The notes: generated by a model from the sequence alone, not told the origin. A stretch of DNA of 64,000 nucleotides from Escherichia phage vB_EcoM_G2285 (MK327933.1), one strand, 5' to 3'. Shown: positions 1 through 43,429, numbered from the stretch's first letter. A program made the numbers and translations.

Positions 1-280
1 AAAGAACAATAACTGTTCCACCATCATACAGCCAATTAACAGCAAAATTAGTTACTGCGGTCGATTTACCTGATTGTCTGCCACCGTCTAAACGAAGTGT
101 ACAGTACTGCTTGAGTACGTCTTCAAATGGTGGGACATAACCGTTCTTACAAATTTCTTCTACTCTAGCATCAGAATGGTGTGTAAAAGCATTCATCAGG
201 GATAGATAAGGTCCAGTTAAAAATGTTCTCATTTTGTTCTCTCTAAATTTGGGCCATTCCGTGGCGCATGAATTGTCCAT
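1..280 (-). CDS. partial CDS (N-terminal part, runs off window start), P-loop NTPase-like
   Basis: Minus-strand reading frame open from ATG at 280..278 (second in-frame ATG 232..230) to position 1; translation MDNSCATEWPKFRENKMRTFLTGPY...RLDGGRQSGKSTAV contains a Walker A-like GKST; absent from ORF track because no stop lies inside the window. Confidence 0.45.
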   Translation of the reverse strand, partial: MDNSCATEWPKFRENKMRTFLTGPYLSLMNAFTHHSDARVEEICKNGYVPPFEDVLKQYCTLRLDGGRQSGKSTAVTNFAVNWLYDGGTVIVL

Positions 281-409
281 TTCTGTATTTACCCATTACC
301 GCACTTGGGCTCGACCTTATTACAGGTTGGCGGGAATCCCTCACAGAATCATGAGGTCCAGCTTGTTCCCATGTTATTTGAATGTAAATAGGCCTAAGTA
401 TAGGCCTTA

Positions 410-988
410 TTAATTACCACGGGCTGCATTAGCAACGGCGTAAGCGTACTGAACATTAGCGTCCTTAAACGTACCTTTAGAGGTATCTATTTCTGCCTTA
501 AAGCCGCCTTTAGCCATAACATCTGCAAATTCTTTACGGAAAGCCATTGCATCAAGACCTTTCCATGTTGATTTATGCTTGGCAAATTCAAGACCGGCGT
601 AGTTGACAGCCTTAGCTAATTTATTATCAATAACCCATTTACCTGCTTTAGGCACAAACTTCGGGCCTTTTTGTTTAGAGAACAGTTTTAAATTCCAGCG
701 ACGAAGGTCACTGTCGGCTTTAACAAAAGCTGCATCTAAGTTACTAGCAACAACATCTTCAATATGAGCAAATTTAAGTCCGTCAACTTCAATATTTAGA
801 TCGTTACGCCAGCGAAGTCCTTCCCAAGCGAAGGCTTTAAAATCAGAAGCCTTTGTAGCTAAGTACCGTTCAATAGGAGCAGTTTTAGGGTCAAAGCCGT
901 TTCCGCCACGATAAGTCCACTCGTCCTTATTAATGCCTTGAGCTTTTCCTGCAAAGGCCTCGGCGATAAATTCTTTATATGTTTTCAT
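410..988 (-). CDS. ipIII: internal protein with N-terminal capsid targeting sequence (IPIII-like, 192 aa)
   Basis: ORF track; starts MKTYKEFIAEA (T4 CTS consensus cleaved by gp21 protease); size close to T4 IPIII; SD AAGGAAAC upstream of ATG 988. Confidence 0.65.
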   Translation of the reverse strand: MKTYKEFIAEAFAGKAQGINKDEWTYRGGNGFDPKTAPIERYLATKASDFKAFAWEGLRWRNDLNIEVDGLKFAHIEDVVASNLDAAFVKADSDLRRWNLKLFSKQKGPKFVPKAGKWVIDNKLAKAVNYAGLEFAKHKSTWKGLDAMAFRKEFADVMAKGGFKAEIDTSKGTFKDANVQYAYAVANAARGN

Positions 989-1019
989 TTTTTGTTTCCT
1001 TGTTTGTTTTGATAGAGTA

Positions 1020-1049
1020 ATTATACCATATTAATACTTAAGCGTAAAC
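1020..1049 (-). promoter_or_regulatory. T4 early-type promoter (GTTTAC -35, 18-nt spacer, TATAAT -10) upstream of ipIII-like gene
   Basis: Minus strand reads GTTTACgcttaagtattaatatggTATAAT; plus-strand gtaaac at 1044..1049 and attata at 1020..1025. Confidence 0.5.
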
Positions 1050-1052
1050 AAT

Positions 1053-1313
1053 TTAAGCTTTACCGCCAGAAATAATTCCGAAGTTGTTAAAATCGTATCC
1101 AATATCGTCAACATCTACTTTAGGACTTGCTACAACATAAGCAATTTCACTACGTTTTGCATAGGTGTTGATTTCTTTACCATCGCCACCTAAGAAAGAA
1201 TACCCATTACGCTTTAATGAGCCAAAGTCTTCCGCATCACCAATGAAAGCTTTAACTTTAAATTTGGGGTCTTTGACATCTGCTTCAATGATAAATTCTT
1301 GATACATTTTCAT
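1053..1313 (-). CDS. ipII: internal protein with capsid targeting sequence (IPII-like, 86 aa)
   Basis: ORF track; N-terminus MKMYQEFIIEA matches CTS pattern; ATG confirmed at 1313..1311. Confidence 0.55.
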   Translation of the reverse strand: MKMYQEFIIEADVKDPKFKVKAFIGDAEDFGSLKRNGYSFLGGDGKEINTYAKRSEIAYVVASPKVDVDDIGYDFNNFGIISGGKA

Positions 1314-1321
1314 TTTTTTCC

Positions 1322-1735
1322 TTAGTAAATTGATTTACCATAGTATTTGTACCAAGTCGGACGTTGAGCAATTTTTTCATCTAAGCGTGCTTGACTTATC
1401 GCAATGGACGCTTCGGACGGGACGTAATTATTACGAAATTCTACAGGAATGTCGGAAATATCCTGGACAGTCGTGTCCTTGATTTTGAAACCACGTTTCA
1501 AGCATTCAGCGATTAGCTCGATTTGACGTAAACGTAAAAATTCGAGTTTGTCGTAAAAGAATGTTACGTGACCTGTGCCTAAGATAAATGTTGGAGGGAT
1601 TTTAAAATCCTTTACACGTTTACCGTTTTGAACATGTTTACGGACTGAACCAAATACGCGTGGTAATTCACGATACTCAGCCATAAGATGTTGGTCGGTC
1701 AGTTCAGAAACAAGTGTTAAATTGATACGGGTCAT
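1322..1735 (-). CDS. denV: endonuclease V, pyrimidine dimer DNA glycosylase (DenV)
   Basis: Translation [35 protein letters not shown] nearly identical to T4 endonuclease V; ORF track start at 1747 is a TTG extension, ATG at 1735 with SD GGAGGAAA. Confidence 0.9.
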
Positions 1736-1793
1736 AATTTCCTCCAAGTAGTTGATGAATGTATAGTATCAAAGTCCTTGGAGGAAGTAAACA

Positions 1794-2075
1794 CTATTTT
1801 TCTGAAGCGCCTGAAATATATTTTTCAAGACGTTGTTTCATTAGCGAGCCGTTCTTAGCGATTTCTTCCGGTTTATCGCACATACGCAACAAGGCTTCAA
1901 GCTTAGCGATATTGCTGGTACGTTCAAATTTGCGAGTATCTATCTTACTAGCAAGTTCAGAAATACGTGCTAATAGACTTTCGGCTTCAACCAAAGCTGC
2001 ACCTAGCTTAGTTGCAAATGTGTCAGTAGCTTCGTTAAGAATAGATTCTGATAAAAATTCACTATATGTTTTCAT
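1794..2075 (-). CDS. internal-protein-like protein with CTS ([10 protein letters not shown]), wedged between denV and e
   Basis: ORF track (1794..2090, TTG extension); in-frame ATG at 2075 gives N-terminus [10 protein letters not shown]; ATG overlaps stop of gene e (ATGA). Confidence 0.6.
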
Positions 2076-2560
2076 ATATACGCTTTCCAAGTTCCTGTTT
2101 TAAATGTTGAGATTACGCGTTTCGCGCGATTAGGTGTCTGACGATACCATTTAGATTGGGCTAGATTTACTGCCGCTTCATCCCAACGTTTCTGTTGAAG
2201 AATACGAAGAGAATTAGTAAAACCGGCGACGCCTGCTACACCCATTTGGAAGACCATATTGACCAATGCACATCGACGAACTGCATCTAAAGAATCGTAT
2301 ACCGGTTTAAGTTTAGCATTACCCAAGATTCCGCGAACGGCTTTATCAACGTCTTCATTAAATAGCTTTTCAGCCTCATCAAGGGTAATTGTACCGTTGC
2401 ATTTACGTCCGATCATTCTGTCAAGTTCAGCTTTAGCTACGGCTAAAGACGGGTTCTTTGTTACTAAATGGCCTATGCCAATCGTCCAAAAGCCTTCAGT
2501 GTCTTTGTATAAAGTCGGTCTAAGACCTTCGTCATTACGAAGCATTTCAAATATATTCAT
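2072..2560 (-). CDS. e: endolysin (T4 lysozyme, gene e)
   Basis: Translation [49 protein letters not shown] is clearly T4 lysozyme; ATG at 2560. Confidence 0.95.
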
Positions 2561-2561
2561 A

Positions 2562-2587
2562 ATACCTCCCACGTTTATAGGAGGTAT
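2562..2587 (-). promoter_or_regulatory. hairpin sequestering the SD of gene e with late-promoter-like TATAAACG in the loop
   Basis: Minus strand ATACCTCC-TATAAACGTG-GGAGGTAT then T-ATG; 8-bp perfect stem; the GGAGGT SD sits in the 3' arm. Confidence 0.55.
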
Positions 2588-2594
2588 TTATTAC

Positions 2595-3053
2595 TTATAG
2601 GAGGGTAGTGAGCACCTTATATAATGATTTGCCCATTACATATTCCCATTGAGAAGGTTTAATTAAAGCGAATGCATCAAATTCAGGAATCTGTCGTCCG
2701 TCTGGGAATGTATGATAGGAATTACAAACACTGTTTCTGAATTGCTCGTGCTCTACAGGGATGGTATATAAGAACAGATGAATATTCTTATTGTCTGAGT
2801 AATGATGTTCACCTAGGTCTTTCAGGAAGGCAGGGTCATACTGTGTAAACCCAGTTTCTTCTTCGCATTCACGAATAGCGGCTTCAATAGGAGATTCGCC
2901 AGGTTCGACACGGCCTTTAGGAATATCCCACCGATGAGCTAATGCACCTTTAGGACGAGAACCAGTTACACGGCCCATGAATAATTCTTTATCTTCGGTA
3001 AGGAAAATAATACCGGCTGATAGTTCTTTCACTTTATTTTTCTTACTCATCAT
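2595..3053 (-). CDS. nudE: Nudix hydrolase (NudE, e.1)
   Basis: Nudix box GRVEPGESPIEAAIRECEEETGF in translation; position directly after e as in T4. Confidence 0.85.
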   Translation of the reverse strand: MMSKKNKVKELSAGIIFLTEDKELFMGRVTGSRPKGALAHRWDIPKGRVEPGESPIEAAIRECEEETGFTQYDPAFLKDLGEHHYSDNKNIHLFLYTIPVEHEQFRNSVCNSYHTFPDGRQIPEFDAFALIKPSQWEYVMGKSLYKVLTTLL

Positions 3054-3279
3054 CTCGGTTCCATGATTTGGCCATTAATTCGGACATAAATTCTTCAATG
3101 CGCGTTTCTTTAGATGGACTTTCACTATCAGATATTTGGACCATATAATCAGAAATAGGTCGGAACATATCCAAGTCGCTTTCTAAATCTTCTTTGATTT
3201 TCTCTTCTGACGTTCCTGTATCATAGGAATACAGATAAGAATCACATGATTCTGATTTAATGTAAATTGCTATACTCAT
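3043..3279 (-). CDS. hypothetical small acidic protein
   Basis: ORF track 3043..3294; likely real start ATG 3279 (MSIAIY) preceded by AGGAA. Confidence 0.45.
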   Translation of the reverse strand: MSIAIYIKSESCDSYLYSYDTGTSEEKIKEDLESDLDMFRPISDYMVQISDSESPSKETRIEEFMSELMAKSWNRDDE

Positions 3280-3512
3280 CTCAAATTCCTGCATTCGGTA
3301 ATAAAACGTTCAACTTCATTATTTTTGGCCTTTATCTTGTCTTTACGTTCCTGTAAACTACTTTTAACAAGATTAATAATGATGCCTACAGTACCTCCAC
3401 CAATTATACCGCCAATTATACTTACGATAGTAGATGCTAATAAGATAGCAATAATATCTAGTACGGCAAAGGCACTTACTTTAGTACTAAAAAAACCATA
3501 CCGATGGTACAA
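3276..3512 (-). CDS. small membrane protein with glycine-zipper TM segment and C-terminal ...ERFITECRNLR
   Basis: ORF track; hydrophobic IIGGIIGGGTVGII segment; member of the C-terminal motif family. Confidence 0.5.
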   Translation of the reverse strand: MYHRYGFFSTKVSAFAVLDIIAILLASTIVSIIGGIIGGGTVGIIINLVKSSLQERKDKIKAKNNEVERFITECRNLR

Positions 3513-3675
3513 ATATAATCCATCCTGTTATCCATTGGCACTTATTGAAAAACTTTTCAAGCTCAGCTTGAGTTGTTCGTATTACTTCATCGATAGGTTG
3601 ATATCCATTAATGTATCTGTTCACGATAATACCTGCTGGCTGGTCGATTTTAAATTCTTGGCAAATATGTTTCAC
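3487..3675 (-). CDS. hypothetical protein (62 aa)
   Basis: ORF track only; compact minus-strand gene array. Confidence 0.35.
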   Translation of the reverse strand: MKHICQEFKIDQPAGIIVNRYINGYQPIDEVIRTTQAELEKFFNKCQWITGWIIFVPSVWFF

Positions 3676-3746
3676 TAAGTATGATGGACATCCTGTCCAA
3701 TCTACTGAATAGTATGAAATACCTTCGTTGCCATCAACTATTCATA

Positions 3747-4052
3747 TTATTTTCCTCGACATTCTTTAATGAAATTTTCTAGATTGGTAGATTCAATAGC
3801 TTTTTTACGAGCTTCTGCGTGTTCTTCTTCGGTCAATTTACGTTTATAATTGACCCAGACATTATGGTCGAAACTAGTCGTGGCATATAATAACAAAGCT
3901 CCGACGAATAATAAAAACGGTGATAAGAATACAAAACCAGGAACACCATCCATATCGTAAGCCTTTTGTAATACTGCAACAGAAAGGGCTGCGTAAAAAA
4001 GTGATGCAAATATTGTTAAAAGACCAATTCGGTTGGTTTCGCCTAATTTCAT
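3747..4052 (-). CDS. small membrane protein (2 predicted TM) ending ...NLENFIKECRGK
   Basis: ORF track; SD GAGGAG before ATG 4052; hydrophobic segments; C-terminal motif family. Confidence 0.5.
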   Translation of the reverse strand: MKLGETNRIGLLTIFASLFYAALSVAVLQKAYDMDGVPGFVFLSPFLLFVGALLLYATTSFDHNVWVNYKRKLTEEEHAEARKKAIESTNLENFIKECRGK

Positions 4053-4067
4053 AATATTCTCCTCATG

Positions 4068-4112
4068 TTTAATAGGACTACTATAACATAGTCCTATAAT
4101 TGTGTAAACAGT
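4068..4112 (-). promoter_or_regulatory. PeSL-like cassette: early promoter (GTTTAC -35 / TATAGT -10) with inverted repeat ATAGGACTA..TAGTCCTAT
   Basis: Minus strand GTTTACacaattATAGGACTATGTTATAGTAGTCCTAT, followed by the 18-mer CATGAGGAGAATATTATG also found at 8533..8550. Confidence 0.6.
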
Positions 4113-4121
4113 TTTGTGAAG

Positions 4122-5078
4122 TTATTTGAAAGGTTTTACCATATGGAAATTTTGTTTGAAACGTTTGACGTAATCATCATGTCCTAAACTTTGGTACATA
4201 CTTACTACTTTGCGGTAGTTTTCCCAGGCATACTCACGAAACCAGCCAGAGGTGATGCTTGTACAGACTTTTTCTAATGCCATCATGAAACTGGCTTCAG
4301 GGTTAATTTTAAAGTCATTAGGAATTTGAGAACGTTCTAATGCTAGTACACATGATTCTTCGTATACACCGGCCAATTTGACCATTTCCGGTAATGATTC
4401 GAACTTCTCGCGTGAGGTCATGACTTCAGAACCGTCTTTCATATAAAATGTATACGCTGGACGGTCTGTTAGTGCAATGGCTTCGTGAATAGTATCATGG
4501 TCATATGTATAGATGTCATCTTTAAAGAACGCACTTTTAGAAGTGTCAAGAACCGGGTGAGCATAGTTCAAGGTTTCTTTCTGGCGTTTCAGCATAATTT
4601 CAGTAAGTTCATCGTTCAGTGTAACACCTTTACCACGAAGATACTGAATATGGTTCATAGTCTTTAAAAAGAATGGATTATTTTTCTTGAAACGATGAGA
4701 CATCTTAATTGCAAGGCACATCTCAGGAGTTGCCCAGTAAAACCCGTTCAAACGGTCTTTAGTCAAATTTTTCTTGGCGTATTTTAAAAGGTCATAAGAA
4801 GACGTGAAATCTTCAGGAGTGAGTTCACCGACTAATTCACGGACATTAGTAATTGCCGGAACAATATATGCTTCAAAATGAGTTTCGCGTCCGTTATGGA
4901 AGCATTTGAAAACTTGGACATCAGGGTTATCTTGGTGAACATATACACCCATCATTTGATTTTTGAATGCATTCCAAGAACATTGGTCCGCAATAAAGTC
5001 CCAATCGCTATTTTTGATAGCGCTAGAATCAATAAGACCGTGATAGTGAAGTGCACGAGAACCAATAACTAACATCAT
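4122..5078 (-). CDS. hypothetical protein, 318 aa, possible Pol-beta-superfamily nucleotidyltransferase fold
   Basis: Largest ORF of the hyperplastic region; N-terminus LVIGSRALHYHG...SDWDFIAD resembles the hG[GS]...[DE]h[DE]h NTase motif; not verified by search. Confidence 0.55.
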   Translation of the reverse strand: MMLVIGSRALHYHGLIDSSAIKNSDWDFIADQCSWNAFKNQMMGVYVHQDNPDVQVFKCFHNGRETHFEAYIVPAITNVRELVGELTPEDFTSSYDLLKYAKKNLTKDRLNGFYWATPEMCLAIKMSHRFKKNNPFFLKTMNHIQYLRGKGVTLNDELTEIMLKRQKETLNYAHPVLDTSKSAFFKDDIYTYDHDTIHEAIALTDRPAYTFYMKDGSEVMTSREKFESLPEMVKLAGVYEESCVLALERSQIPNDFKINPEASFMMALEKVCTSITSGWFREYAWENYRKVVSMYQSLGHDDYVKRFKQNFHMVKPFK

Positions 5079-5106
5079 AATATTTTCCTCGGATTAATTC
5101 ATTAAC

Positions 5107-5358
5107 TTAAATTTCACGACATGCGATATTATATTCATCCCAGAGGTCATCATATGAAGCCTCTACCAAAGGAACGATTGTACCGTTTATGTCTTCATTA
5201 TAAGGGCAAATTGTACAGTGCGCATCTTCGAATCGGATGCCTTTGTGTTCAGATTTTTTATAACGCATATCGAATATCTTTGCAAACTTTTCACGAGTAA
5301 TGGTTTTACTAACCAATTTGGTTCCGATACTTTCGTAATAAATCATTGTGGACTCCAT
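5107..5358 (-). CDS. hypothetical protein (83 aa)
   Basis: ORF track; preceded by PeSL-like cassette. Confidence 0.45.
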   Translation of the reverse strand: MESTMIYYESIGTKLVSKTITREKFAKIFDMRYKKSEHKGIRFEDAHCTICPYNEDINGTIVPLVEASYDDLWDEYNIACREI

Positions 5359-5363
5359 TTAAT

Positions 5364-5408
5364 TTGATAGGACTACTATAACATAGCCCTATCTTGTTGT
5401 AAACTGTT
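5364..5408 (-). promoter_or_regulatory. PeSL-like early promoter/stem-loop cassette
   Basis: gataggactactataacatagccctat followed by gtaaac (5399..5404); same architecture as 4068..4112. Confidence 0.55.
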
Positions 5409-5606
5409 TTAGCAAGAATAACTAGATGATACCCAGCCTTGAACAGTGATACTATTGTGGGATAATGAGATCGCGTCCTGGAGATTCAGACCTGCGTTAT
5501 CTTCAATCCATAATGTAACTTCTTCGCGTTCTTCTGTTGCAATTTGGAACAGGTTTTCCAGAGCAGCTACTGCCGTACGTACAGCACAATCTAATTCACG
5601 AGACAT
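5409..5606 (-). CDS. hypothetical protein (65 aa), paralog of 5616..5921 (shared C-terminal WVSSSxxC)
   Basis: ORF track; C-terminus ITVQGWVSSSYSC versus ITEGAWVSSSALC in neighbour. Confidence 0.45.
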   Translation of the reverse strand: MSRELDCAVRTAVAALENLFQIATEEREEVTLWIEDNAGLNLQDAISLSHNSITVQGWVSSSYSC

Positions 5607-5615
5607 ATTGTTTCC

Positions 5616-5921
5616 TTAGCACAACGCAGAAGACGAAACCCAAGCACCTTCAGTAATAACGTAACCATTACCTTCACGCTTAACATCGCCACCATTATTT
5701 TCAATTTCATCTTTCATCCACTGGTATACGATTTCACCCTTAGGATAATAAGTACGACCGCTACCATAATCACCTACAGAAAATGATACGGCATATTGGT
5801 CTGCGATCTTTGTTGCTTCTTCTTCGATACGTTCAGCTTGATTCAGAAGTTTATAAATTGCATCTGAAGCGGATTTGGCATCATTAAACTCTGGTACTTT
5901 AATTTCAATAATCTTACTCAT
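5616..5921 (-). CDS. hypothetical protein (101 aa)
   Basis: ORF track; ATG overlaps stop of upstream gene (AAAATGA). Confidence 0.5.
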   Translation of the reverse strand: MSKIIEIKVPEFNDAKSASDAIYKLLNQAERIEEEATKIADQYAVSFSVGDYGSGRTYYPKGEIVYQWMKDEIENNGGDVKREGNGYVITEGAWVSSSALC

Positions 5922-6277
5922 TTTCTACATTCCTTAATAAAGTTTTCGATTGTTTCATTTTCACGTCTAGCTAAGAGTTCATTATAACTAATCATTTGAG
6001 AAGCGTAAACCTTTTTATTTTTCTTGTTATGGTTTATAAAATCGTAGTAAAAATAGACTACAGTACAAAATGATGCGATGGATGCAAAGGCTTGGGTATA
6101 CCGTAAGTCCTGCCATTGGTCTGTGAATCCACCAGTGTTCCCTATAAATCCTAACACAACGCCATCAATAAGAAATCCAACTAATCCAAAGGCAAATCCC
6201 ATGCCAATACTCATAATAAAAATTAGAATGTTCTCACCAAGAGAAGGCCATATGGTTAAGAGTTGAGGCTTTTGCAT
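5918..6277 (-). CDS. small membrane protein ending ...ETIENFIKECRK
   Basis: ORF track; hydrophobic N-terminal half; SD AAGGAA upstream of ATG 6277. Confidence 0.5.
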   Translation of the reverse strand: MQKPQLLTIWPSLGENILIFIMSIGMGFAFGLVGFLIDGVVLGFIGNTGGFTDQWQDLRYTQAFASIASFCTVVYFYYDFINHNKKNKKVYASQMISYNELLARRENETIENFIKECRK

Positions 6278-6651
6278 CTTATTTCCTTAACGAATTCCAT
6301 AGCTTCTTCATATTCATACTTTTTAACAGCCTCGTCATATTGAGCTCTTGCTTTTGCACATTGAATTTTCCATTCGCGTACTCGAGCTCTATAATGACGT
6401 CCTTGGTACCAATATCCCACCCAGTTAATAGGCATTAATAAAAATGGCACAATAAACGACCCGGCTATAATAAGTAAAAACACTGCATCAGACGATATAA
6501 CTTCACTAGAATCTAAAACAGCTCCTATAATCATAAAGATTAAAAATGCTAAAGCTAAAATAGGGCCAAATAGTACTTCATTTGGGATTAATTTACGCTT
6601 GTATTCATACGCCCAGGGCTTAATTGGCATGTACAGGGTTGGCTTTGACAT
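6256..6651 (-). CDS. small membrane protein ending ...EFVKEIRCKSLNS
   Basis: ORF track 6256..6681 starts at TTG; first ATG at 6651 (MSKPTLY); hydrophobic segments. Confidence 0.45.
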   Translation of the reverse strand: MSKPTLYMPIKPWAYEYKRKLIPNEVLFGPILALAFLIFMIIGAVLDSSEVISSDAVFLLIIAGSFIVPFLLMPINWVGYWYQGRHYRARVREWKIQCAKARAQYDEAVKKYEYEEAMEFVKEIRCKSLNS

Positions 6652-7243
6652 ATTCTCTACATTCCATAATAAATTGCTCAAGGATTAAATTGTTAGTGAA
6701 ATTAGGACTAACAACCATGGTTTCATAAAGCGCATCAATAGCACTTAAAGCATCAACTCTTTTAAGCAAAGGCTTGCCTTCATACATAGTTTCAGAATCG
6801 ATGATTAACGTAAAGTAATATTTTTTATTATCGACTAGAACTTCTGTATCGATATAAAACATATTAGACCTCAGAAGCTTATCTCTAAAACCATAATAAT
6901 CTTCAGAGCGTTCGCTGATATATTCCCATTCAGTGTTTAAACAACAAACAGACCATGTAGGAGCAACGAAATCAGTGAATCTAATATCATGGTCTGCAAC
7001 TAGTTTAGCAATAGCTCCGATATCATGAATCATAATACCTGGGGCTAATAAAGATTTTCTGCTATGGCCGGCCGTTTTCTCGGTGGTCTCATAAGAAGAC
7101 GACCAGTACCATTTACGTCCAGTTGCAACATATCGTAATGAATCAACTAAAGACGTAGGTGGATTTACCTTATCTCGGAACTCTTCGAACATTGAGTCAA
7201 TATCATTATTTTGGTTTCGCATGTTAACTCCTTTATTATCCAA
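6620..7243 (-). CDS. hypothetical protein (207 aa) with ...LEQFIMECRE near C-terminus
   Basis: ORF track; SD AAGGAG before ATG 7243. Confidence 0.5.
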   Translation of the reverse strand: MDNKGVNMRNQNNDIDSMFEEFRDKVNPPTSLVDSLRYVATGRKWYWSSSYETTEKTAGHSRKSLLAPGIMIHDIGAIAKLVADHDIRFTDFVAPTWSVCCLNTEWEYISERSEDYYGFRDKLLRSNMFYIDTEVLVDNKKYYFTLIIDSETMYEGKPLLKRVDALSAIDALYETMVVSPNFTNNLILEQFIMECREYVKANPVHAN

Positions 7244-7263
7244 AAGGAGGACCGGAGTCCTCC
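7241..7263 (-). terminator. rho-independent terminator (GGAGGAC-CGGA-GTCCTCC stem plus U-run on minus strand)
   Basis: Minus strand GGAGGACTCCGGTCCTCCTTTTGG directly downstream of stop of 7272..7880. Confidence 0.55.
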
Positions 7264-7271
7264 GTATTATT

Positions 7272-7880
7272 TTATTTCAAAGAGTTAATATATTCTTGTA
7301 CATCAGCAGAAGTGGTTTCGACACCAGCTGGAGTGCCATTGAACGTTTCAACACGAGTCAGAGTGTCTTCGATATCAACCTTAGTCAGTGCAGCGATTTC
7401 AATTACATCATCGGCCGTAGAGATACCAAGGGCATTGGCTGCTCGAGTTTCACGAATGTATTCGAGTTTGATTGCTAGATTCTGACGAGCATCATCAAGT
7501 TCAACCACCTTACGAGCAATTTCAATTCGCATAGCGGCATACCCGTCAGCTTTTGTATTAAGTTGTTCGGCAGTTCGACGATACAGAAGACCAAGCTTAG
7601 CATGCATGGTAACATCTTGTCCTTCAGCCAAGAGCTTACGAATTTCACGTTCCTTAGAAGCGGCTTGCTTGTTCTTTTCATTAACAAGTTCGCGAATACG
7701 TTTTTCTTCATTAATAGATTTAACAGAAGCCGTTTTTAGTTCTTTGATTTGGGTAATCAACTTATCTGCAGCTGCGTTATACTGTTCTTCGACAGTCAGA
7801 TTTTTAGCCATAGCAGTACCCAGTTTAGTGCGGATGAATTCGACAAGTTTCTTCAGTGTGTTCATATTATTACCTTTCAA
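7272..7880 (-). CDS. coiled-coil protein (202 aa), possibly PspA/IM30-like
   Basis: ORF track; Lys/Glu/Ala-rich heptad-like sequence; PspA resemblance is an unverified impression. Confidence 0.5.
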
Positions 7881-7935
7881 TTGGTGGTTTATTATCCAAC
7901 GAGAGCATTATACTCTGCTCTCAAGAGATTGTAAA

Positions 7936-8163
7936 TTATTTTTTAATCAAATTGACATAAAACTCGGCGTCTTCCGGGTGCATGCCTTCGCAGTATTCTT
8001 CAACCATGAACTTCTTAACAGCTTCATAAGGACCGCTCAGATTAAGCTCAGTTGTCCAGAACTTGGAATCTTGGACCGAATCGATACGAACTTCAGGGTG
8101 ACGGTTGCGAATAACTTCTTCTGTGTATTCATAATCAACGACATCAATACTAACTTTAGCCAT
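7936..8163 (-). CDS. hypothetical protein (75 aa)
   Basis: ORF track; SD GAGAGGAAAA before ATG 8163. Confidence 0.45.
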   Translation of the reverse strand: MAKVSIDVVDYEYTEEVIRNRHPEVRIDSVQDSKFWTTELNLSGPYEAVKKFMVEEYCEGMHPEDAEFYVNLIKK

Positions 8164-8183
8164 TTTATTTTCCTCTCATTTGA

Positions 8184-8228
8184 TTTGATAAGTCTATAGT
8201 ATCACCATCCTTGGTGCTTGTACATCGT
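8184..8228 (-). promoter_or_regulatory. early promoter cassette variant (TACTAT -10, TGTACA -35-like)
   Basis: tttgataagtctatagtatcac nearly identical to element at 43389..43410. Confidence 0.4.
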
Positions 8229-8247
8229 TATTTTTAATTTTTCCAAC

Positions 8248-8535
8248 TTAACAACTTGTAGTGTCCTTCATACGTGGTTTATCCCAAGAAATACTAATAT
8301 ATGATTCACTGTCAATAGAAGTCGCCGGGTTTTTCTCTACCGTAAGACCTTCACTTTCCAGCCATTCAATAGTATTTGCGCATAAATCGGAAGAACACCT
8401 CATCGGGAACCGGCAAGATTTTTCACCTTTAGCTGCAGTGTTATACATCTTTTCTAAAATACGCTTTTGAACGTTTTTAAAAATAGTTTCAGCAGATTCT
8501 TCAGATTTTTTATTCAGTTCAGTGTAAAGACCCAT
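8248..8535 (-). CDS. hypothetical Cys-containing protein (95 aa)
   Basis: ORF track; ATG 8535 preceded by the conserved GAGGAGAATATT RBS block. Confidence 0.45.
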   Translation of the reverse strand: MGLYTELNKKSEESAETIFKNVQKRILEKMYNTAAKGEKSCRFPMRCSSDLCANTIEWLESEGLTVEKNPATSIDSESYISISWDKPRMKDTTSC

Positions 8536-8553
8536 AATATTCTCCTCATGTTT

Positions 8554-8592
8554 TGATAGGTCTATAGTAACACATCTAGGGAAGAAGTAAAC
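8554..8592 (-). promoter_or_regulatory. PeSL-like early promoter (GTTTAC -35, TACTAT -10)
   Basis: Minus strand GTTTACttcttccctagatgtgTTACTATAGAcctatc; gtaaac at 8587..8592. Confidence 0.5.
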
Positions 8593-8621
8593 ATCTTTAT
8601 GAAATATTTTTATGCCCTAGA

Positions 8622-8652
8622 TACCAAAAAACCCCAACCATAAGGAAGGGGC
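8622..8652 (-). terminator. candidate rho-independent terminator closing the RNA gene region
   Basis: Minus strand CCCCTTCC-TTAT-GGTTGGGG (imperfect stem) followed by TTTTTT. Confidence 0.4.
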
Positions 8653-9052
8653 TAAGCCTTGCGGCAACCTTGTCGGGGTTCCACCTGCTAAGGCAAGTGT
8701 TTGTACGAAACGCCGGGATTTGAACCCGGTTATTAAGTAGTTGACGCTACTCAATATTTTTAAAAGGCCATATCTCGACCGTATCCGAACGTTCCGTCAA
8801 AAACGCTACTCGGCTTACGGCAAAGATATTTCCTCGAATCGATAATTCTGTGCGCCGTTTCTGCTGTGATGTAAGGGGATATTAACGAATCATAAAGATT
8901 TATTAAGACCAGTCCTTACTCAGGGAACATCAGTCCGACGACTTACCGGTAGCGACCCGGCTTCTTATTTTGGCATATCATCAATTTGATCCTATAAAAT
9001 ATAGGAGTATTTATTATTTGGATAGAGCACTTAATTTACTTCGTTTAAATTA
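8653..9052 (-). ncRNA. unresolved structured-RNA region with a tRNA-like T-arm (CCGGGTTCAAATCCCGG); possible stable RNAs or non-canonical tRNA
   Basis: About 400 nt without convincing ORF between terminator and tRNA-Asn; T-arm-like motif at 8711..8730; no complete cloverleaf found by hand. Confidence 0.25.
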
Positions 9053-9124
9053 CTGGCGCACTTGGACTCGAACCAAGATAAAGGAGTTAACAGCTCCCCG
9101 TAATAACCTTTATACGATGCACCA
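9053..9124 (-). tRNA. tRNA-Asn (anticodon GTT)
   Basis: Hand-folded cloverleaf on minus strand: acceptor TGGTGCA/TGCGCCA, D-loop with GG, anticodon stem GGGAG/CTCCT, loop CTGTTAA, T-arm CTTGG-TTCGAGT-CCAAG; CCA not encoded; D-stem has one mismatch. Confidence 0.65.
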
Positions 9125-9130
9125 TTTGTT

Positions 9131-9205
9131 TGGTGACCCTGGCTGGTTTCGATCCAGCTACCTATCAGTTATGAGCTGACAGCTCTCCCATTGAGCTACA
9201 GGGCC
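9131..9205 (-). tRNA. tRNA with CAT anticodon (Met, or Ile if lysidine-modified)
   Basis: Hand-folded cloverleaf: acceptor GGCCCTG/CAGGGTC, D-arm GCTC-AATGGGA-GAGC, anticodon loop CTCATAA, T-arm GCTGG-ATCGAAA-CCAGC, encoded CCA. Confidence 0.75.
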
Positions 9206-9267
9206 TAAATAACTTTCTATTATGAAAGGCACTTTAGAGCACCTTTGGTAATAGAGGGTACTTATTA

Positions 9268-9294
9268 ATAATAACACATAATTCTTAAAGCAAA
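9268..9294 (-). promoter_or_regulatory. T4 middle-type promoter (MotA box TTTGCTTTA, 12-nt spacer, TATTAT -10) upstream of tRNA cluster
   Basis: Minus strand aatTTGCTTTAagaattatgtgtTATTATtaa. Confidence 0.45.
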
Positions 9295-9326
9295 TTAATC
9301 ATTTTTACTGTCAGTAAAACAATTTC

Positions 9327-9611
9327 TCACCATATTGTGTATGTGTTCTGAATGCAATCAAGTCCTAAAGGATTCTTGAAGATGTCGTATTCAACTGGGC
9401 CTGATTCAGTTTCAATAAAGAAATCAAAATTAACCGTGTTGAATTTACGGTCTTCCCAAATCAATTTAACTTGTGAAGATGAACGGTCGACATAAACCTT
9501 TTCAACTTCAAAATTAGTCAGAATACCGTAGTCATCGACTAGTGCTTTAGCTGCACGTTGATCGCTTTCATATCCATTCTCAATGGACGATACTTTAGCA
9601 TAAAGAATCAT
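9327..9611 (-). CDS. hypothetical protein (94 aa)
   Basis: ORF track. Confidence 0.45.
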   Translation of the reverse strand: MILYAKVSSIENGYESDQRAAKALVDDYGILTNFEVEKVYVDRSSSQVKLIWEDRKFNTVNFDFFIETESGPVEYDIFKNPLGLDCIQNTYTIW

Positions 9612-9985
9612 GAATGTTCCACCATTTCAAAGGTATGAGCATCAACAATATGATACCAGTCAAAATTTTCTTCTGCGTTTTTATAAATTTCGCGAAGAGC
9701 CTCAACAGTTTTTCCTGTAGCAACAAGGTCGTCAATACCACCAAGAGGATAACAGTCACCAGCAAACAGAAGGAAATTAATAGTTTCTGTAGGTTCTGGA
9801 TGCAGAACACCGTTATCGTCTACCACTTCAAAGAAAGTGTAAGAAGGAGTACAAGTTTTAATCCAAGCCCATGCTTGAGCTACTGAATCAAATGGTCTGC
9901 GTATCAAACGACAATCAGGGTCTTTAGAAGGATTTGCTTCAAAATCAGCATATACGTGGTATTTCATTTTACTCACCTTTTGCAA
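9608..9985 (-). CDS. hypothetical protein (about 120 aa)
   Basis: ORF track; alternative start ATG 9967 (MKYHVY). Confidence 0.5.
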   Translation of the reverse strand: MQKVSKMKYHVYADFEANPSKDPDCRLIRRPFDSVAQAWAWIKTCTPSYTFFEVVDDNGVLHPEPTETINFLLFAGDCYPLGGIDDLVATGKTVEALREIYKNAEENFDWYHIVDAHTFEMVEHS

Positions 9986-10175
9986 TTTTATCCATAACGA
10001 TAGCGATTAAGCTGATTAGAAATGCTACTACCAATGAGATAGAGTTTTCAGTTGTTGTCAGTAGTCCACAAATGAATCCTACAAACATCGAAAAACTAAA
10101 AGCCATTGAAGCAATTACTACAGCAACATTACGAATCAGTTCAGCGCGTTTCATTTTATTTCTCCATTTACTCAT
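9969..10175 (-). CDS. small membrane protein (68 aa)
   Basis: ORF track; two hydrophobic segments. Confidence 0.45.
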   Translation of the reverse strand: MSKWRNKMKRAELIRNVAVVIASMAFSFSMFVGFICGLLTTTENSISLVVAFLISLIAIVMDKIAKGE

Positions 10176-10180
10176 TTGTT

Positions 10181-10222
10181 TTGATAGGACTACTATAACA
10201 TAGTCCTATAGGCTTGTATACC
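10181..10222 (-). promoter_or_regulatory. PeSL-like cassette (inverted repeat ATAGGACTA..TAGTCCTAT, weaker -35)
   Basis: ttgataggactactataacatagtcctat immediately upstream of gene start 10175. Confidence 0.5.
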
Positions 10223-10223
10223 T

Positions 10224-10499
10224 TTATTTCAAATATATTGCGTATTTTTTATAGCCACCAGGCTCGTGTCGAAGACCTTTATCATTCGCAAAACGTTGAA
10301 TGTTATTGAACTGATTTTCATCAAGTTCGGATGTGTCAAATATGAAAAAGTTTCGTTTGTTACCAAGCGTGATATGCGGAGTTAAGTCAATGTTATACAA
10401 ATTAAGAATATCAGCAATAACCTGTTTGGCCGCTTTGTTAATTTTCACACCAGACGATTCTGAGATGAATTCGTTGAAAGTTTTCATTTTAGGTTCCAT
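10224..10499 (-). CDS. internal-protein-like protein with CTS (MKTFNEFISE)
   Basis: ORF track; CTS motif begins at second ATG (10487); hyperplastic position next to 57B. Confidence 0.55.
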   Translation of the reverse strand: MEPKMKTFNEFISESSGVKINKAAKQVIADILNLYNIDLTPHITLGNKRNFFIFDTSELDENQFNNIQRFANDKGLRHEPGGYKKYAIYLK

Positions 10500-10507
10500 T
10501 TGGTTGT

Positions 10508-10550
10508 TTTGATAGGACTACTATAACATAGTCCTATCATGTTGTAAACT
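10508..10550 (-). promoter_or_regulatory. PeSL-like early promoter/stem-loop cassette
   Basis: gataggactactataacatagtcctat plus gtaaac at 10544..10549, overlapping stop of upstream gene. Confidence 0.55.
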
Positions 10551-10857
10551 ATTTTATTCCGCGTGATGCAATTGTGTTCTGTCGTTTAACACCAGTTTGT
10601 TTAAAGTCATGATTGTCGATTTGATCGGTACGAGCAACTCCGAATGATGATTTGATTTTAGCTTTAGATCCTTTAGTTATAGAAATAAACATCTCGGAAG
10701 CCCCTTTCTTAAAGTCCGAAGCGATTACTTCAACACCGTTCTTAGCAAGTGACTTCAGAATTGCATCCGCAAACTCATCGTCAAGACCTACCTGAGTATA
10801 AATAATAAATGTCTTTGGTGCAGCAGCTTCATTGATAAATTCTTTAAATGTTTTCAT
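10549..10857 (-). CDS. internal-protein-like protein with CTS (MKTFKEFINEA)
   Basis: ORF track; ATG 10857; N-terminal CTS motif. Confidence 0.6.
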   Translation of the reverse strand: MKTFKEFINEAAAPKTFIIYTQVGLDDEFADAILKSLAKNGVEVIASDFKKGASEMFISITKGSKAKIKSSFGVARTDQIDNHDFKQTGVKRQNTIASRGIK

Positions 10858-10883
10858 TTTATTTCCTTTAATTTTGTTTTGTT

Positions 10884-10926
10884 TTGATAGGACTACTATA
10901 ACATAGCCCTATAACATTGTAAACTG
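10884..10926 (-). promoter_or_regulatory. PeSL-like early promoter/stem-loop cassette
   Basis: gataggactactataacatagccctat plus gtaaac at 10919..10924. Confidence 0.55.
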
Positions 10927-10937
10927 TTTTGTGAAAA

Positions 10938-11623
<686 letters not shown>

Positions 11624-11627
11624 TTTA

Positions 11628-12362
11628 TTACCTTAAGATTGTTTCAATTTTAGAATAAAGCTCTTCTAAAGAGCCGTCGTTTGTAATAACTAAATCGCCT
11701 TCTTCAATAGGCAACCCAGCTTCTGTAATATGTTTATCAGTGGATTCCGTACCAGAGCGAACCACATGAATAACTGTAGCACCCATCGCTCTAGCGGTTT
11801 CCATTTCATGGACTTGGCGTGTATCTGTTACAACATAGTAATCGAAATCACTTCCAATATAATCCATATAGTTTAATGCAAAAAGCTTAACCCAATACAT
11901 ACGGTCAAATAAATTAACGACAACATCCGTACCGAGGGCTTGCATAAGACGGCGGATTGACCATGTGTCGTTGATATTATTTATAACTTCACGCAGGGCT
12001 TCATATGGTTTAATATCTAGATACGAATATCCACCTTCTAACGATGATAATACTTTAACATTATTAATCGGTAAATATTGACTTTGCAAATAAATTAGCG
12101 CTTCTTCCAATAATTCAATAACATCCAACTTATTGAGATTTAATGGTGTTTCACGGTCGTATCCAATGCCTTCAAAGTATTCGTATTTCAACTCTGTGAA
12201 TACATCAGGATTTTCAGCATGCCTACGTCCCCAGGCTATTGCTAGAGCGTCTTTAATTGGATATGCTAATTGGTATTTTACGGATTTAAAGTTTGAATTG
12301 ATGTAATCAGCAGTAGTGTCTTTACCACTACGTTTGATGCCACTTAAAAAGATTAGCTCCAT
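11628..12362 (-). CDS. 1: deoxynucleoside monophosphate kinase (gp1)
   Basis: P-loop GIKRSGKDT; size and synteny with T4 gene 1. Confidence 0.9.
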   Translation of the reverse strand: MELIFLSGIKRSGKDTTADYINSNFKSVKYQLAYPIKDALAIAWGRRHAENPDVFTELKYEYFEGIGYDRETPLNLNKLDVIELLEEALIYLQSQYLPINNVKVLSSLEGGYSYLDIKPYEALREVINNINDTWSIRRLMQALGTDVVVNLFDRMYWVKLFALNYMDYIGSDFDYYVVTDTRQVHEMETARAMGATVIHVVRSGTESTDKHITEAGLPIEEGDLVITNDGSLEELYSKIETILR

Positions 12363-12415
12363 AGGTTTTCCTCGTATAATTTATGAGTGATTATAACATA
12401 CGGAGCTAGAAGCGA

Positions 12416-13000
12416 TTAACGCAAGGAAGGGTGTCTAGAAATGGATTTAGATTCGACCGCTTGACGTGGTTGTTGAGATACAATGACTTCACCATCCTTT
12501 TCTATCGTCATGTACGCATAGTGAATAGTTGCTACGCACGTAACGGCAGGGTCAGAATCTTCAGTGTAACTAAATTCAATTTCACTCAAATCAGAAATCC
12601 ATGGTTTATAGAAATTCGCCGTCAAAACTACTTCAGTCTTATTGTTGTTTAAAATGTGCAAAGTAACAAACTCAGGACCATCGGAGTGGGCCGTATTATG
12701 TCCGGTTATATAGTTATTAGTGCTGAGCATCCATTTATACATGTTCATCCAGGACGTCATGTCTTCATCAACTATAAATCGTACAACAAAAGGGTCATAT
12801 TCAAATGTGGTGCCTGCACGCATTGCACGTCCTAACCCCATTGTGCCTGTCACAGTTTCAACAACAGGAATTCTCACACCTGGCAATGGAGCCGTTTGGG
12901 CATTGAGCACAAAACCTGAAGTTCGTGTACTATCCGGGATATCCACAACAAAGTTTGTTATATTTGTTTGGTTAAAAATCTGTCTCGCTGGACGAGTCAT
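12416..13000 (-). CDS. 3: tail completion and sheath stabilizer protein gp3
   Basis: Synteny 1-3-2-4; ATG at 13000 (MTRPARQ), ORF track start 13006 is GTG extension. Confidence 0.8.
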   Translation of the reverse strand: MTRPARQIFNQTNITNFVVDIPDSTRTSGFVLNAQTAPLPGVRIPVVETVTGTMGLGRAMRAGTTFEYDPFVVRFIVDEDMTSWMNMYKWMLSTNNYITGHNTAHSDGPEFVTLHILNNNKTEVVLTANFYKPWISDLSEIEFSYTEDSDPAVTCVATIHYAYMTIEKDGEVIVSQQPRQAVESKSISRHPSLR

Positions 13001-13102
13001 AAGCACCTCAAAAACGCTTTAATAAAAATGCAGTATAATGGTTTTAGGTCTCTTCCATTAATCCGGTTCAACAGAATATCAGAAGAACGGAAGAGAATAG
13101 AA

Positions 13103-13924
13103 TTAAGATTTCCAAACAGTATTCGCAGAGAAACGTTTTCCTTTTGACATAAACTGCTGAGTAGGTAACATGATTATGTTAGCCCAGTCTTTAGGAGCTA
13201 TTTCTGTTATTGTTCCTCTAATGTGGCCTGGCAGGTATGCTTTAATCATTTTGTCAGCACCTTGAAATCCTTTCACCTTGCTCCAGTCTATCTTCAACTT
13301 TGTGTTATTAGTAATAGTAGTTGTGCTAGCATATTGCTTCAGCAATTCTTCAAGAAACTGTTGACGTGCTTTAGGTGGGATATAGTGCAAGTTTAACCCA
13401 TACATCAAATTATGTTTACCTAATCCTAAATAAATAATCAAAGGATATCGGTCCCAGTATGGCAGAGTATCTTTATGTTTAGCATCATACACGTAAGTAT
13501 AAATTTTGCCTGGCGTAGGCTTGACTACTTTATGACCTTTTACACTTTTCTTAATTGTTTCAATAAACCACTTAGATGATTTGTTGTTTACTGCTGCGCC
13601 TTCATTTCTAATCTTTTCTCGTATTGAACTGCGAAACGAGTTTATCATCAGAAGTTGACGTTCTTGCTTATTGAGTTTATTTTTAGGTTTAGATTCAAGC
13701 GTTTCAATTTTCTGTGCAGTCTTAATAGATGATGCATATCTAGACATTGCAGATGTAAACGACGAGTATTTTATTCCTTTTGATTCTGCAAATGCTTTTG
13801 CAGTGATTCCTTTCTCTTTAGCTTTCTTGTATTCTAATCCTATCTCAATCCATTTTCTTTCATTCATAGACTGAGCAATCTTAGGGGCTTGTACGCCTTC
13901 AGATATAATTTGGAATATGCTCAT
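13103..13924 (-). CDS. 2: DNA end protector protein gp2
   Basis: 273 aa, synteny and size match T4 gp2. Confidence 0.85.
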
Positions 13925-13926
13925 AA

Positions 13927-14376
13927 TTACCCCTTGTATCCGAGTTTCCTAAGTCCATCTTCGGTTAGAACTCGAAATTTTATATTTCTCTTTTCAGCAA
14001 CAGCTGAGGCAGCTTTCCATTTGTCACAGTTCACAGACCACGTGTAGATTTCATTCATATAACGTTTCTTAGCCGCAGTTGTAAGATTCACCGGTTTAAT
14101 AGGTGGCTGAGTTTCTTTCTTTGGTTTTATTTCTACAAAGAACTCTTGACCTGATGCATCTTTCATCCATATGTCCATATAGTATCGACGTTTCTTACCT
14201 TCAGCATTACAAAAATATGGAATTACTGCTGTTTCACTACCCCATGCAATAATTTCTGGATTTTTATCCAACCATTCGAAAAAGAATTTTTCCCAGTTTG
14301 AACGATACGTTATTTTGGTATGGTCTCCACGGTATTTTTTTAAATTTTTTGGGACCCATTTACCAGAGTAGGCCAT
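13927..14376 (-). CDS. 4: head completion protein gp4
   Basis: Translation from ATG 14376: [19 protein letters not shown]...[22 protein letters not shown]; SD AAGGAGG; ORF track 5' extension discarded. Confidence 0.85.
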
Positions 14377-43099: not shown

Positions 43100-43369
43100 T
43101 TATTTCTGTGCAATTTCGATGTAAGTTTTCAAAATATTTTGCCAATTAGGCATACCTTCTTGGACATATGCTGGAGAACAGTCTTTGTTTTTGAATGATG
43201 CAAGTTTATCAGTGGCCCAATAACCTTTAGCTCGAGCTTCAGAATCAACTTTCATCCATACTTTGTTGAAGGCGTTACCATTAACTTTTGCACCATATTT
43301 TTCTACTAACTTAACCGCTTCAGCTTCCAGAACTTTTAAAGTATCTCTTAAGAAACGTGCTTTAGTCAT
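43100..43369 (-). CDS. hypothetical protein (89 aa), early-type gene inserted between 23 and 24
   Basis: ORF track; opposite orientation to capsid genes; SD GAGGAG and own early promoter cassette. Confidence 0.55.
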   Translation of the reverse strand: MTKARFLRDTLKVLEAEAVKLVEKYGAKVNGNAFNKVWMKVDSEARAKGYWATDKLASFKNKDCSPAYVQEGMPNWQNILKTYIEIAQK

Positions 43370-43394
43370 TTTGTTTACTCCTCTGTAGTTGATA

Positions 43395-43429
43395 AGTCTA
43401 TAGTATCACATACCAAATACGTTGTAAAC
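43395..43429 (-). promoter_or_regulatory. early promoter cassette (GTTTAC -35, TACTAT -10) for 43100..43369
   Basis: Minus strand GTTTACaacgtatttggtatgtgaTACTATagacttatcaac; element shared with 8184..8205. Confidence 0.55.

Follow-up and report, generated by a model that had tools for sequence, protein, structure and literature searches.

Probable early-promoter modules of the PeSL type, a subset with a predicted hairpin around the -10 hexamer, in the RB69-like Escherichia phage vB_EcoM_G2285

The window analyzed here is a stretch of 64,000 nucleotides (nt) from Escherichia phage vB_EcoM_G2285 (MK327933.1), and this report concerns a family of early-promoter modules on its minus strand, some of which carry a palindrome around the -10 hexamer. 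Between positions 3000 and 12000, the window is 94-96% identical to RB69-like phages (genus Mosigvirus), with numerous indels. It comes from a close relative of RB69 and spans the region running from e through the tRNAs, the internal proteins (IPs), and 57B to gene 1. The RB69 annotation over this region reads e, nudE, e.2...e.8, tRNA, tRNA.2/3/4, ipI, 57B, 57A, and gene 1, all on the minus strand. In T4-type genomes, the stretch from e to gene 1 is classically counted among the hyperplastic regions. Intergenic gaps measure only ~60-70 nt, and large plus-strand structural genes occupy the window from ~14.4 kb on. For comparison with relatives, we used five Mosigvirus loci (L001 to L005, including RB69, F27, ESh27, 348Ecol098PP, and VIPECOMC06) and one Tequatrovirus locus (L006).

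An initial annotation of the window had reported eight intergenic sites, all upstream of small minus-strand genes, as copies of a near-identical inverted repeat. We confirmed the position, strand, intergenic location, and small downstream gene of all eight sites, and we found the inverted repeat at five of them, hereafter called canonical. At these five sites, it forms a 26-nt palindrome, ATAGGACTA-N8-TAGTCCTAT. A search of the window for the 26-mer ATAGGACTACTATAACATAGTCCTAT with at most one mismatch returned 5 matches, against 0.00 expected from shuffles of the window. The cores lie at 4072-4097, 5367-5392, 10184-10209, 10512-10537, and 10887-10912, and a repeat finder grouped the canonical copies into a single direct-repeat family of ~65 nt with 71-80% identity and a nearly invariant core. 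All five are confined to 4-11 kb, in the e-tRNA-IP region that is rich in small open reading frames (ORFs) of unknown function; the structural block at 14-58 kb contains plain promoters only. The canonical modules and the features directly downstream are as follows (z is the folding score against shuffled sequences).

4069 to 4109, minus strand: canonical module 1, with GTTTAC at 4109-4104, the palindrome at 4072-4097, and TATAGT as the -10 (z, -3.2)
3747 to 4052, minus strand: gene downstream of module 1, phrog_9798, similar to RB69ORF133c; the RB69 orthologue of the module is the published Pe:67959
5364 to 5404, minus strand: canonical module 2, with the palindrome at 5367-5392 and one G·U pair in the sense RNA (z, -6.0)
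5107 to 5358, minus strand: gene downstream of module 2, phrog_3723, similar to RB69ORF135c; the RB69 orthologue of the module is Pe:69254
10181 to 10221, minus strand: canonical module 3, with GTATAC as the -35 and the palindrome at 10184-10209 (z, -4.6), before a tRNA.4-like gene at 9969-10175
10509 to 10549, minus strand: canonical module 4, with a 12-bp stem at 10510-10539 (z, -6.1), before an internal head protein gene at 10224-10499 (phrog_7673)
10884 to 10924, minus strand: canonical module 5, with the palindrome at 10887-10912 and a G·U pair in the sense RNA (z, -4.1)
10549 to 10857, minus strand: gene downstream of module 5, internal head protein, phrog_2667
10821 to 10880, minus strand: conserved 5' untranslated region (5'UTR) and IP leader MKTFKEFINEAA, through which the homology of module 5 continues beyond the start codon (repeat family D4)

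Folding each of the eight elements separated them in the same way. The five canonical elements folded strongly, at -14 to -17.5 kcal/mol (z, -3.2 to -6.1 against shuffles), with an A/U-rich stem in which 3 of 9 pairs are G-C. The sites at 8184, 8554, and 43395, which had been described as carrying a variant of the inverted repeat, folded no better than their shuffles (z, -0.57, +0.47, and +0.40, respectively), and the variant was not upheld.

On the minus strand, the canonical modules consist, in order, of an A-rich region, G-TTTACA, 17 nt, TGn-TATAGT, AGTCCT, ATCAAAAC, a 5'UTR, a Shine-Dalgarno (SD) sequence, and ATG; the 17-nt spacer becomes 18 nt when counting starts at GTTTAC. The canonical -35 occurs as AAAAC(N)GTTTAC with A/T-rich sequence before it. 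When scored against the sigma70 consensus, the promoters, which have the TG extension in addition, reached 10/12 at 4108, 5403, 10548, and 10923 and 9/12 at 10220. The GTTTAC hexamer attributed to all the sites was exact at six of the eight, the other two reading GTATAC (10221) and ATGTAC (8225). The upstream gene's stop codon lies right against the -35 or runs into it, as at 10549, where a gene ends and the -35 occupies 10549-10544. At all eight sites, GAGG, GGAG, or AAGGA followed by ATG lies 20-40 nt past the -10, and no late promoter TATAAATA was found on the minus strand within the modules. The three direct copies clustered at 10181-10926 are spaced 328 and 375 bp apart and would be suitable substrates for mini-circle formation.

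Orthologues of these sites are among the 57-58 early promoters predicted in RB69 by Nolan et al. (2006; PMC1524935), whose Additional file 3 lists them as Pe:67959, 69254, 72069, 72354, 73274, 76459, 76812, and 77187. Our modules agree with the RB69 predictions in the position of GTTTAC (-36 to -31), the A-rich -40s, and a preference for C at -3 to -1. The same paper contains no mention of a stem-loop, palindrome, or hairpin and none of a repeat-family or mosaic structure. Promoter early stem-loop elements (PeSLs) were defined by Arbiol et al. (2010; PMC2839356) as an AT-rich region, a sigma70-like early promoter, a stem-loop, an SD, and an ATG. The stem-loop may take five positions, most commonly in the stretch separating the -35 from the -10 or over the -10. 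In RB49 and phi1, these elements had terminator-like and promoter activity in reporters, and mini-circles were detected; RB69 is not mentioned in that study, and our literature search found no description of PeSLs in RB69-type phages. The initial annotation had likened the sites to PeSLs, and this comparison is supported, the layout fitting the published subclass with a stem-loop over the -10. We consider it quite probable that these elements of an RB69-like phage are modules of the PeSL type that serve the expression of early genes.

Like the RB49 and phi1 PeSLs, the modules combine AT-rich upstream sequence, a strong early promoter, and the SD and ATG of a small ORF and cluster in hyperplastic regions. 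The RB49 and phi1 elements flank indels and replacements between close relatives, as some of the modules described here do. The RB49 and phi1 elements have a near-perfect TTGACA-N17-TATAAT and polyG/polyC stems, whereas the modules described here have TTTACA-N17-TATAGT, A/U-rich stems, and one dominant, nearly invariant arm sequence. Promoter activity, terminator activity, and mini-circles have been demonstrated in RB49 and phi1. Comeau et al. (2014; PMC4122927) later described PeSLs in T4/PST and KVP40/nt-1 as well and tied them to the shuffling of the IP locus noted in 1994. The T4/PST elements resemble ours in their consensus (TTTACW-N17-TAYWAT), in their neighborhoods, which include the IP locus, and in their proposed role in modular shuffling. 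They differ in that their AGNA-loop-TCNT stem-loops lie just upstream of the promoter, whereas the arms of our modules are part of the promoter itself, one on each side of the -10.

The -10-bracketing layout also occurs with arms of unrelated sequence. In the window and L001 to L006, we found ATAGGACTA/TAGTCCTAT, AGGATGA/TCATCCT, GGGCTCA/TGAGCCC, GATAGGGTA/TACCCTATC, and GAGAGCA/TGCTCTC, to which the families AGGATGAT/ATCATCCT and TATGATA/TATCATA are added. In each of the first five, the 5' arm falls within the spacer, the discriminator forms the 3' arm, the stem ends at the predicted start, and the -10 hexamer lies inside the loop or at the boundary between the loop and the 3' arm. We evaluated such stems against shuffles in which the -35 and the -10 were held fixed, using sites from the window, L001 to L005, and L006. 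Watson-Crick stems bracketing the -10 reached p<0.05 at 21 of 57 unique promoter-like sites and p<0.01 at 18 of them, and they belonged to at least five independent arm families. Pairing was also measured in 33 unique promoters picked by loop similarity alone. In the canonical 11-pair helix, 79.3% of cells were paired, compared with 75.9% in column shuffles (a level reached by 0 of 500) and 34-58% with a slid partner. One locus, L127, carries a triple compensatory change. Separately, 348Ecol098PP (L004) has, at 13150-13107, the canonical 12-bp arms around a loop that reads CTATATCA instead of TGTTATAG. The former is the reverse complement of the latter with one change, which produces a TATCAT -10. 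This variant, found by megablast in 4 phage records only, looks like a flip between the palindrome arms with promoter function kept.

DNA was compared with RNA, and the sense with the antisense strand, in a set of 54 unique elements drawn from the window and its relatives and from IMG/VR and metagenomes, with the -35, the loop/-10, and the start as anchors and the arms left free. Seventeen were well-formed canonical members, and the 37 from unrelated contigs served as background (2-9 of 10 compatible pairs, mostly 2-7). The corrected arm-free pattern matched 12 IMG/VR stretches and 45 metagenome stretches; most of the metagenome matches were unrelated promoters and were used as background. Loci from an earlier form of the viral scan, GTTTAC-N18-TANNNT-N7-ATCAA, were discarded as mostly chance matches, this pattern having N7 where the canonical copies have N6 and just 14 fixed bases. 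The arms of the 17 members comprised 156 Watson-Crick cells, 11 G·U cells in the sense RNA, 2 A·C cells (G·U in the antisense RNA), and 1 other mismatch, a bias of G·U over A·C with a one-sided p value of 0.011 when counted by cells. At three stem positions, the sense-compatible G·U was the sole intermediate seen between two Watson-Crick states. One series runs from GGACT/AGTCC through GGGCT/AGTCC to GGGCT/AGCCC, another from GATAGG/CCTATC through GGTAGG/CCTATC to GGTAGG/CCTACC, and the third is a change from C-G to U·G in three contexts. For the common G-variant, the folding energy was -12.1 kcal/mol in the sense RNA versus -5.9 in the antisense RNA, and the values for DNA were -3.8 and -2.1. 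We regard these patterns as moderate evidence that selection acts on the hairpin in the sense transcript. As the transcript of the module is predicted to start just 3' of the stem, the hairpin would exist solely in read-through RNA from the upstream gene.

The sites at 8184-8228, 8554-8592, and 43395-43429 share with the canonical copies the -10, start, and 5'UTR only (TACTATAGACyTATCAA...); they are plain early promoters, not inverted repeats. These sites, another early promoter, and a shared ribosome-binding site (RBS) block are the following.

8185 to 8225, minus strand: plain module, TGTACA-N17-TACTAT, before frd.3 (z, -0.57)
8552 to 8592, minus strand: plain module, GTTTAC-N17-TACTAT, before the gene at 8248-8535 (z, +0.47)
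43389 to 43429, minus strand: plain module before an 89-amino-acid (aa) gene at 43100-43369 (z, +0.40)
7896 to 7936, minus strand: early promoter with an unrelated palindrome, ATTTAC-N18-TATAAT, 11/12 promoter match, before an e.6-like gene; the RB69 orthologue is Pe:72069
4050 to 4067, minus strand: RBS/start block CATGAGGAGAATATTATG, copy 1, an 18-mer that contains GGAG
8533 to 8550, minus strand: RBS/start block CATGAGGAGAATATTATG, copy 2, an 18-mer

In the promoter at 7896-7936, the palindrome GAGAGCA-N8-TGCTCTC at 7901-7922 brackets the -10 (z, -4.4). Neither this palindrome nor additional plain early promoters at 1049, 1792, and 58758 had been included in the initial annotation. The identity of the two 18-mers, already pointed out in the initial annotation, was verified; each is a portion of a longer common 5'UTR, the modules at 4109 and 8592 being alike in the 5'UTR and unlike upstream. 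The RBS block reads GGAGAATATTA and matches 9 of 11 positions of the strong site consensus of the RegB endoribonuclease, GG*AGRAYARAA (PMC3014915), so the two early mRNAs that carry it (4050-4067 and 8533-8550) are plausible RegB targets.

We then compared the organization of the region with that of the relatives. BLAST of positions 1-14000 against the five Mosigvirus relatives split the alignment into 7-12 blocks per genome. The IP locus has the arrangement 57B - P - IP - P - IP - P - tRNA.4 (P, module) in six of six genomes, with each gene bounded by modules. The two IP genes are in reversed order in VIPECOMC06, one is swapped for a different IP in RB69, and the same gene body carries differing promoter-plus-leader sequences across genomes. 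Shuffling at the IP locus of T-even phages was described by Repoila et al. (1994), without a detailed mechanism according to PMC4122927, which cites that work. The T-even locus likewise contains variable IP genes whose leader, MKT(F/Y)(K/Q/N)EFI..., is conserved, as is the sequence upstream, and the number, order, and identity of the genes vary; in contrast, the present modules are found outside IP loci too. Paralogous copies of the leader block MKTFKEFINEAA lie at 952-1011 and 1277-1336. Together with the copy at 10821-10880, these leaders (MKT(F/Y)KEFI... plus 5'UTR) show a second IP locus at ~400-1340, beside e/denV, where relatives show synteny breaks at 294-1064.

Exchange was also seen outside the IP locus. 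RB69 ORF145c is missing from the window, and the module upstream of frd.3 (8135-8250) is chimeric: from the UP region to ATCAA it corresponds to the module upstream of RB69 ORF145c, and it is joined within the 5'UTR to frd.3, so that it combines the two modules on either side of ORF145c in RB69. The excision/insertion scenario is the same as for RB49 ORF192, yet here it took place between hairpin-less modules. The module at 8552-8592 has a synteny break on both sides. The module at 43.4 kb is 100% identical to the RB69 ORF145c module over 46 nt, from the -10 through ATGACT, but differs in the -35 and the spacer and precedes an unrelated 89-aa gene. The canonical arm sequence is nearly identical in ~200 phage records, and no fewer than six gene families that are unrelated to one another (phrog_9798, 3723, 1692, 7673, 2667, and 1250) have the canonical module in front of them. 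The phrog_1250 case is in the nrdC/mobD region of the Tequatrovirus phiD1, where we ruled out that the copy had moved together with a homologous gene, as the flanking genes are unrelated. Comparison of the genomes indicates that near-identical module sequence (~45-90 nt, plus the IP leader at IP loci) provides homology at which recombination swaps, deletes, or inserts cassettes and creates mosaic modules.

We propose that the module is a strong promoter for the host sigma70 (a T4 "early" promoter), with an A-rich UP region, G-TTTACA, a 17-nt spacer, and the extended -10 TGn-TATAGT. Transcription would start at the A of ATCAAAAC and continue through a short 5'UTR and the SD to the ATG of a small gene. 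Some of the modules have complementary sequences in the spacer and the discriminator, promoter segments that sigma would not read, and this complementarity places the -10 in the loop of a predicted 9- to 12-bp hairpin. Given the compact genome and its short intergenic gaps, a hairpin could be written only in these two segments, sparing the UP region, the -35, the -10, and the 5'UTR. In sense read-through RNA, the hairpin would insulate adjacent cassettes, by attenuation or as a 3'-end barrier or stabilizer. A bolder reading, which we hold tentatively and judge somewhat less likely than not, is of a dual-coded element, in which promoter DNA would also encode a read-through hairpin that is under selection in the sense RNA and insulates cassettes without a U-tract. 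That the promoters are active, where their transcripts start, and what the hairpin does as RNA are inferences from the sequence.

The stem-loop might instead be a rho-independent terminator of the upstream gene, as proposed for the RB49 and phi1 PeSLs. Such terminators also place a stable RNA hairpin directly downstream of a gene, and the wobble bias toward the sense RNA would suit this explanation. In addition, the RB49 PeSL211/210 stem-loop cut lacZ read-through as strongly as rrnB T1 (PMC2839356), which keeps attenuation alive, and one GenBank record (H31) annotates the element as "terminator." However, the hairpin studied here lies within a promoter, its stem is A/U-rich, and it is always followed by AUCAAAAC and never by a U-tract. 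The terminator scan skipped the element but did pick a canonical T-run terminator close by, at 7246-7263. A classical intrinsic terminator was ruled out on the missing U-tract and the 3 of 9 G-C pairs, and we consider termination in general unlikely; the lack of a U-tract and of a terminator call makes attenuation or a 3'-end barrier or stabilizer likelier than classical termination. Somewhat less probable still is that the palindrome has no function and is an accident of one ancestral promoter, spread by duplication or gene conversion among paralogous promoters. The near identity of the copies, the mosaic modules that trade segments, the abundance of hairpin-less promoters, and the decay of arms at orthologous sites would all be expected from such a history. 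It accounts poorly, however, for independent arm families with one layout, for compensatory double changes through G·U intermediates, and for pairing above that of shuffled and slid controls.

A role at the DNA level, in which a hairpin or cruciform would pre-open the -10 or would stall replication and lead to template switching and recombination, gains credit from the constant position of the -10 within the loop, from the inverted-loop variant in 4 genomes, which is the signature expected of a flip between arms, and from the report that PeSL stem-loops block sequencing polymerases (PMC2839356). We nevertheless judge it improbable, since the hairpin has little stability as DNA (-8.3 kcal/mol in its perfect form and -2 to -4 in the G-variants that are common), the wobble bias favors the sense RNA, and hairpin-less modules recombine too. 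Finally, a perfect 9- to 12-bp inverted repeat centered on the -10 has the classic geometry of an operator, and arms nearly identical in the 5 copies here and in ~200 phage records could be the half-sites of a dimeric DNA-binding protein, from phage or host, that represses or times the promoters. Yet this one position holds at least five arm sequences that are unrelated, and it is the pairing, not a half-site sequence, that is conserved. Moreover, arm changes are compensatory, and the commonest variants (GGGCT/AGTCC) lose DNA symmetry but retain RNA pairing. Because each family has arms of its own and the G·U variants disrupt the symmetry of the DNA, we rejected the operator, which we regard as very improbable.

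Several results weigh against our account of the modules or restrict its scope. The covariation score was marginal, being reached by 31 of 500 shuffles of the 33 promoters, and this test alone is no proof of structure. Counted by position, the wobble bias is 3 versus 2 (p = 0.5), which reflects few independent events. Numerous early promoters in the region have no hairpin, the orthologue of site 10221 has a decayed 5' arm in RB69, F27, ESh27, and 348Ecol098PP, and the RB69 promoter L001:7713 has the 3' half only; the hairpin is not essential to early promoters. With no U-tract and no terminator call, an effect on read-through is speculative, and our literature search found no transcript mapping in RB69. 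Regarding exchange, the hotspot that the initial annotation had proposed finds support in the swaps at the IP locus, in the chimeric frd.3 module, and in the presence of one module before unrelated genes. Nevertheless, synteny breaks were not significantly enriched at modules, occurring at 8 of 11 gene junctions with a module versus 8 of 17 without (p = 0.25 by Fisher's exact test on a manual tally), and neither of the canonical copies at 4109 and 5404 is rearranged in any of the five relatives compared. Breaks away from modules occur at 3735/3736, at 5601-5621 (a 21-nt tandem-paralogue junction), at 9327/9367, and at a tRNA swap, and the best-documented exchange (frd.3/ORF145c) used hairpin-less modules. 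Since this clearest exchange took place between such modules, the hairpin would not be needed for shuffling, and homology, rather than the hairpin, seems to matter for exchange. The region is plastic throughout, with the modules as one substrate of that plasticity.

Some of these breaks, and other features of the region, were characterized further. At 3735/3736, RB69ORF132c (687 bp), present in four of the five relatives, is absent from the window and from VIPECOMC06; the junction falls between two genes, at a place where there is no promoter module, and e.2 loses its first codons there. The e.2-like membrane-protein gene (minus strand, 3276-3675) has a 1-nt insertion near 3495 relative to VIPECOMC06, which leaves overlapping ORFs at 3487-3675 and 3276-3512 and would mean that the gene is a frameshifted pseudogene or that a T-run was misread in sequencing. 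At 5601-5621, a 21-nt block aligns to both flanks of a ~280-bp segment that is found in relatives and missing from the window; phrog_899 is present as two tandem paralogues in the relatives with this segment and as one copy in the window. This arrangement points to deletion or duplication by recombination between the tandem genes, in which the promoter modules had no part. The symmetric G+C-rich hairpin GGAGGACTCCGGTCCTCC at 7246-7263, located between the e.6-like gene and the e.5-like gene, has T-runs on both strands, unlike the promoter hairpins with their missing U-tract, and is a candidate canonical intrinsic terminator, possibly bidirectional.

On the minus strand at 9053-9205, tRNA-Asn(GTT) lies beside tRNA-Met(CAT), where RB69 and 348Ecol098PP have tRNA-Arg(UCU) and other relatives carry tRNA-Met alone or next to a homing endonuclease. 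Synteny breaks at 8988-9160 accompany what looks like a swap of a tRNA cassette. The neighboring stretch at 8623-8988 (~370 nt) is free of ORFs, is 94-98% conserved in the five relatives, and contains the tRNA-like T-arm/acceptor sequence GGGTTCAAATCCCGGCG near 8700-8730 on the minus strand. ARAGORN and Rfam made no call in the ORF-free stretch at 8600-9050; Rfam found two tRNAs only in 1-13 kb and nothing credible in 8590-9060. The stretch could represent a tRNA in decay or the equivalent of the small stable RNAs of T4.

As RB69 promoters had already been predicted and the PeSL concept published, the finding is largely an expected one. New here are the rule that the arms bracket the -10, the existence of several arm families, the pattern of compensatory changes on the sense strand, and evidence for recombination that does not require a hairpin. 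The modules would widen the range of PeSLs to the RB69 group (Mosigvirus), a much-used model and a frequent isolate in phage therapy. Their ~45-nt core may serve as a marker of early-gene cassette boundaries in the annotation of RB69-like genomes, and the module itself is a candidate compact promoter/insulator part. The modules would also explain the mosaic 5' ends of IP genes, which are linked to the evasion of host defense. If the dual-coded reading is true, each module would be a compact promoter-plus-insulator, making each small gene a self-contained, exchangeable unit.

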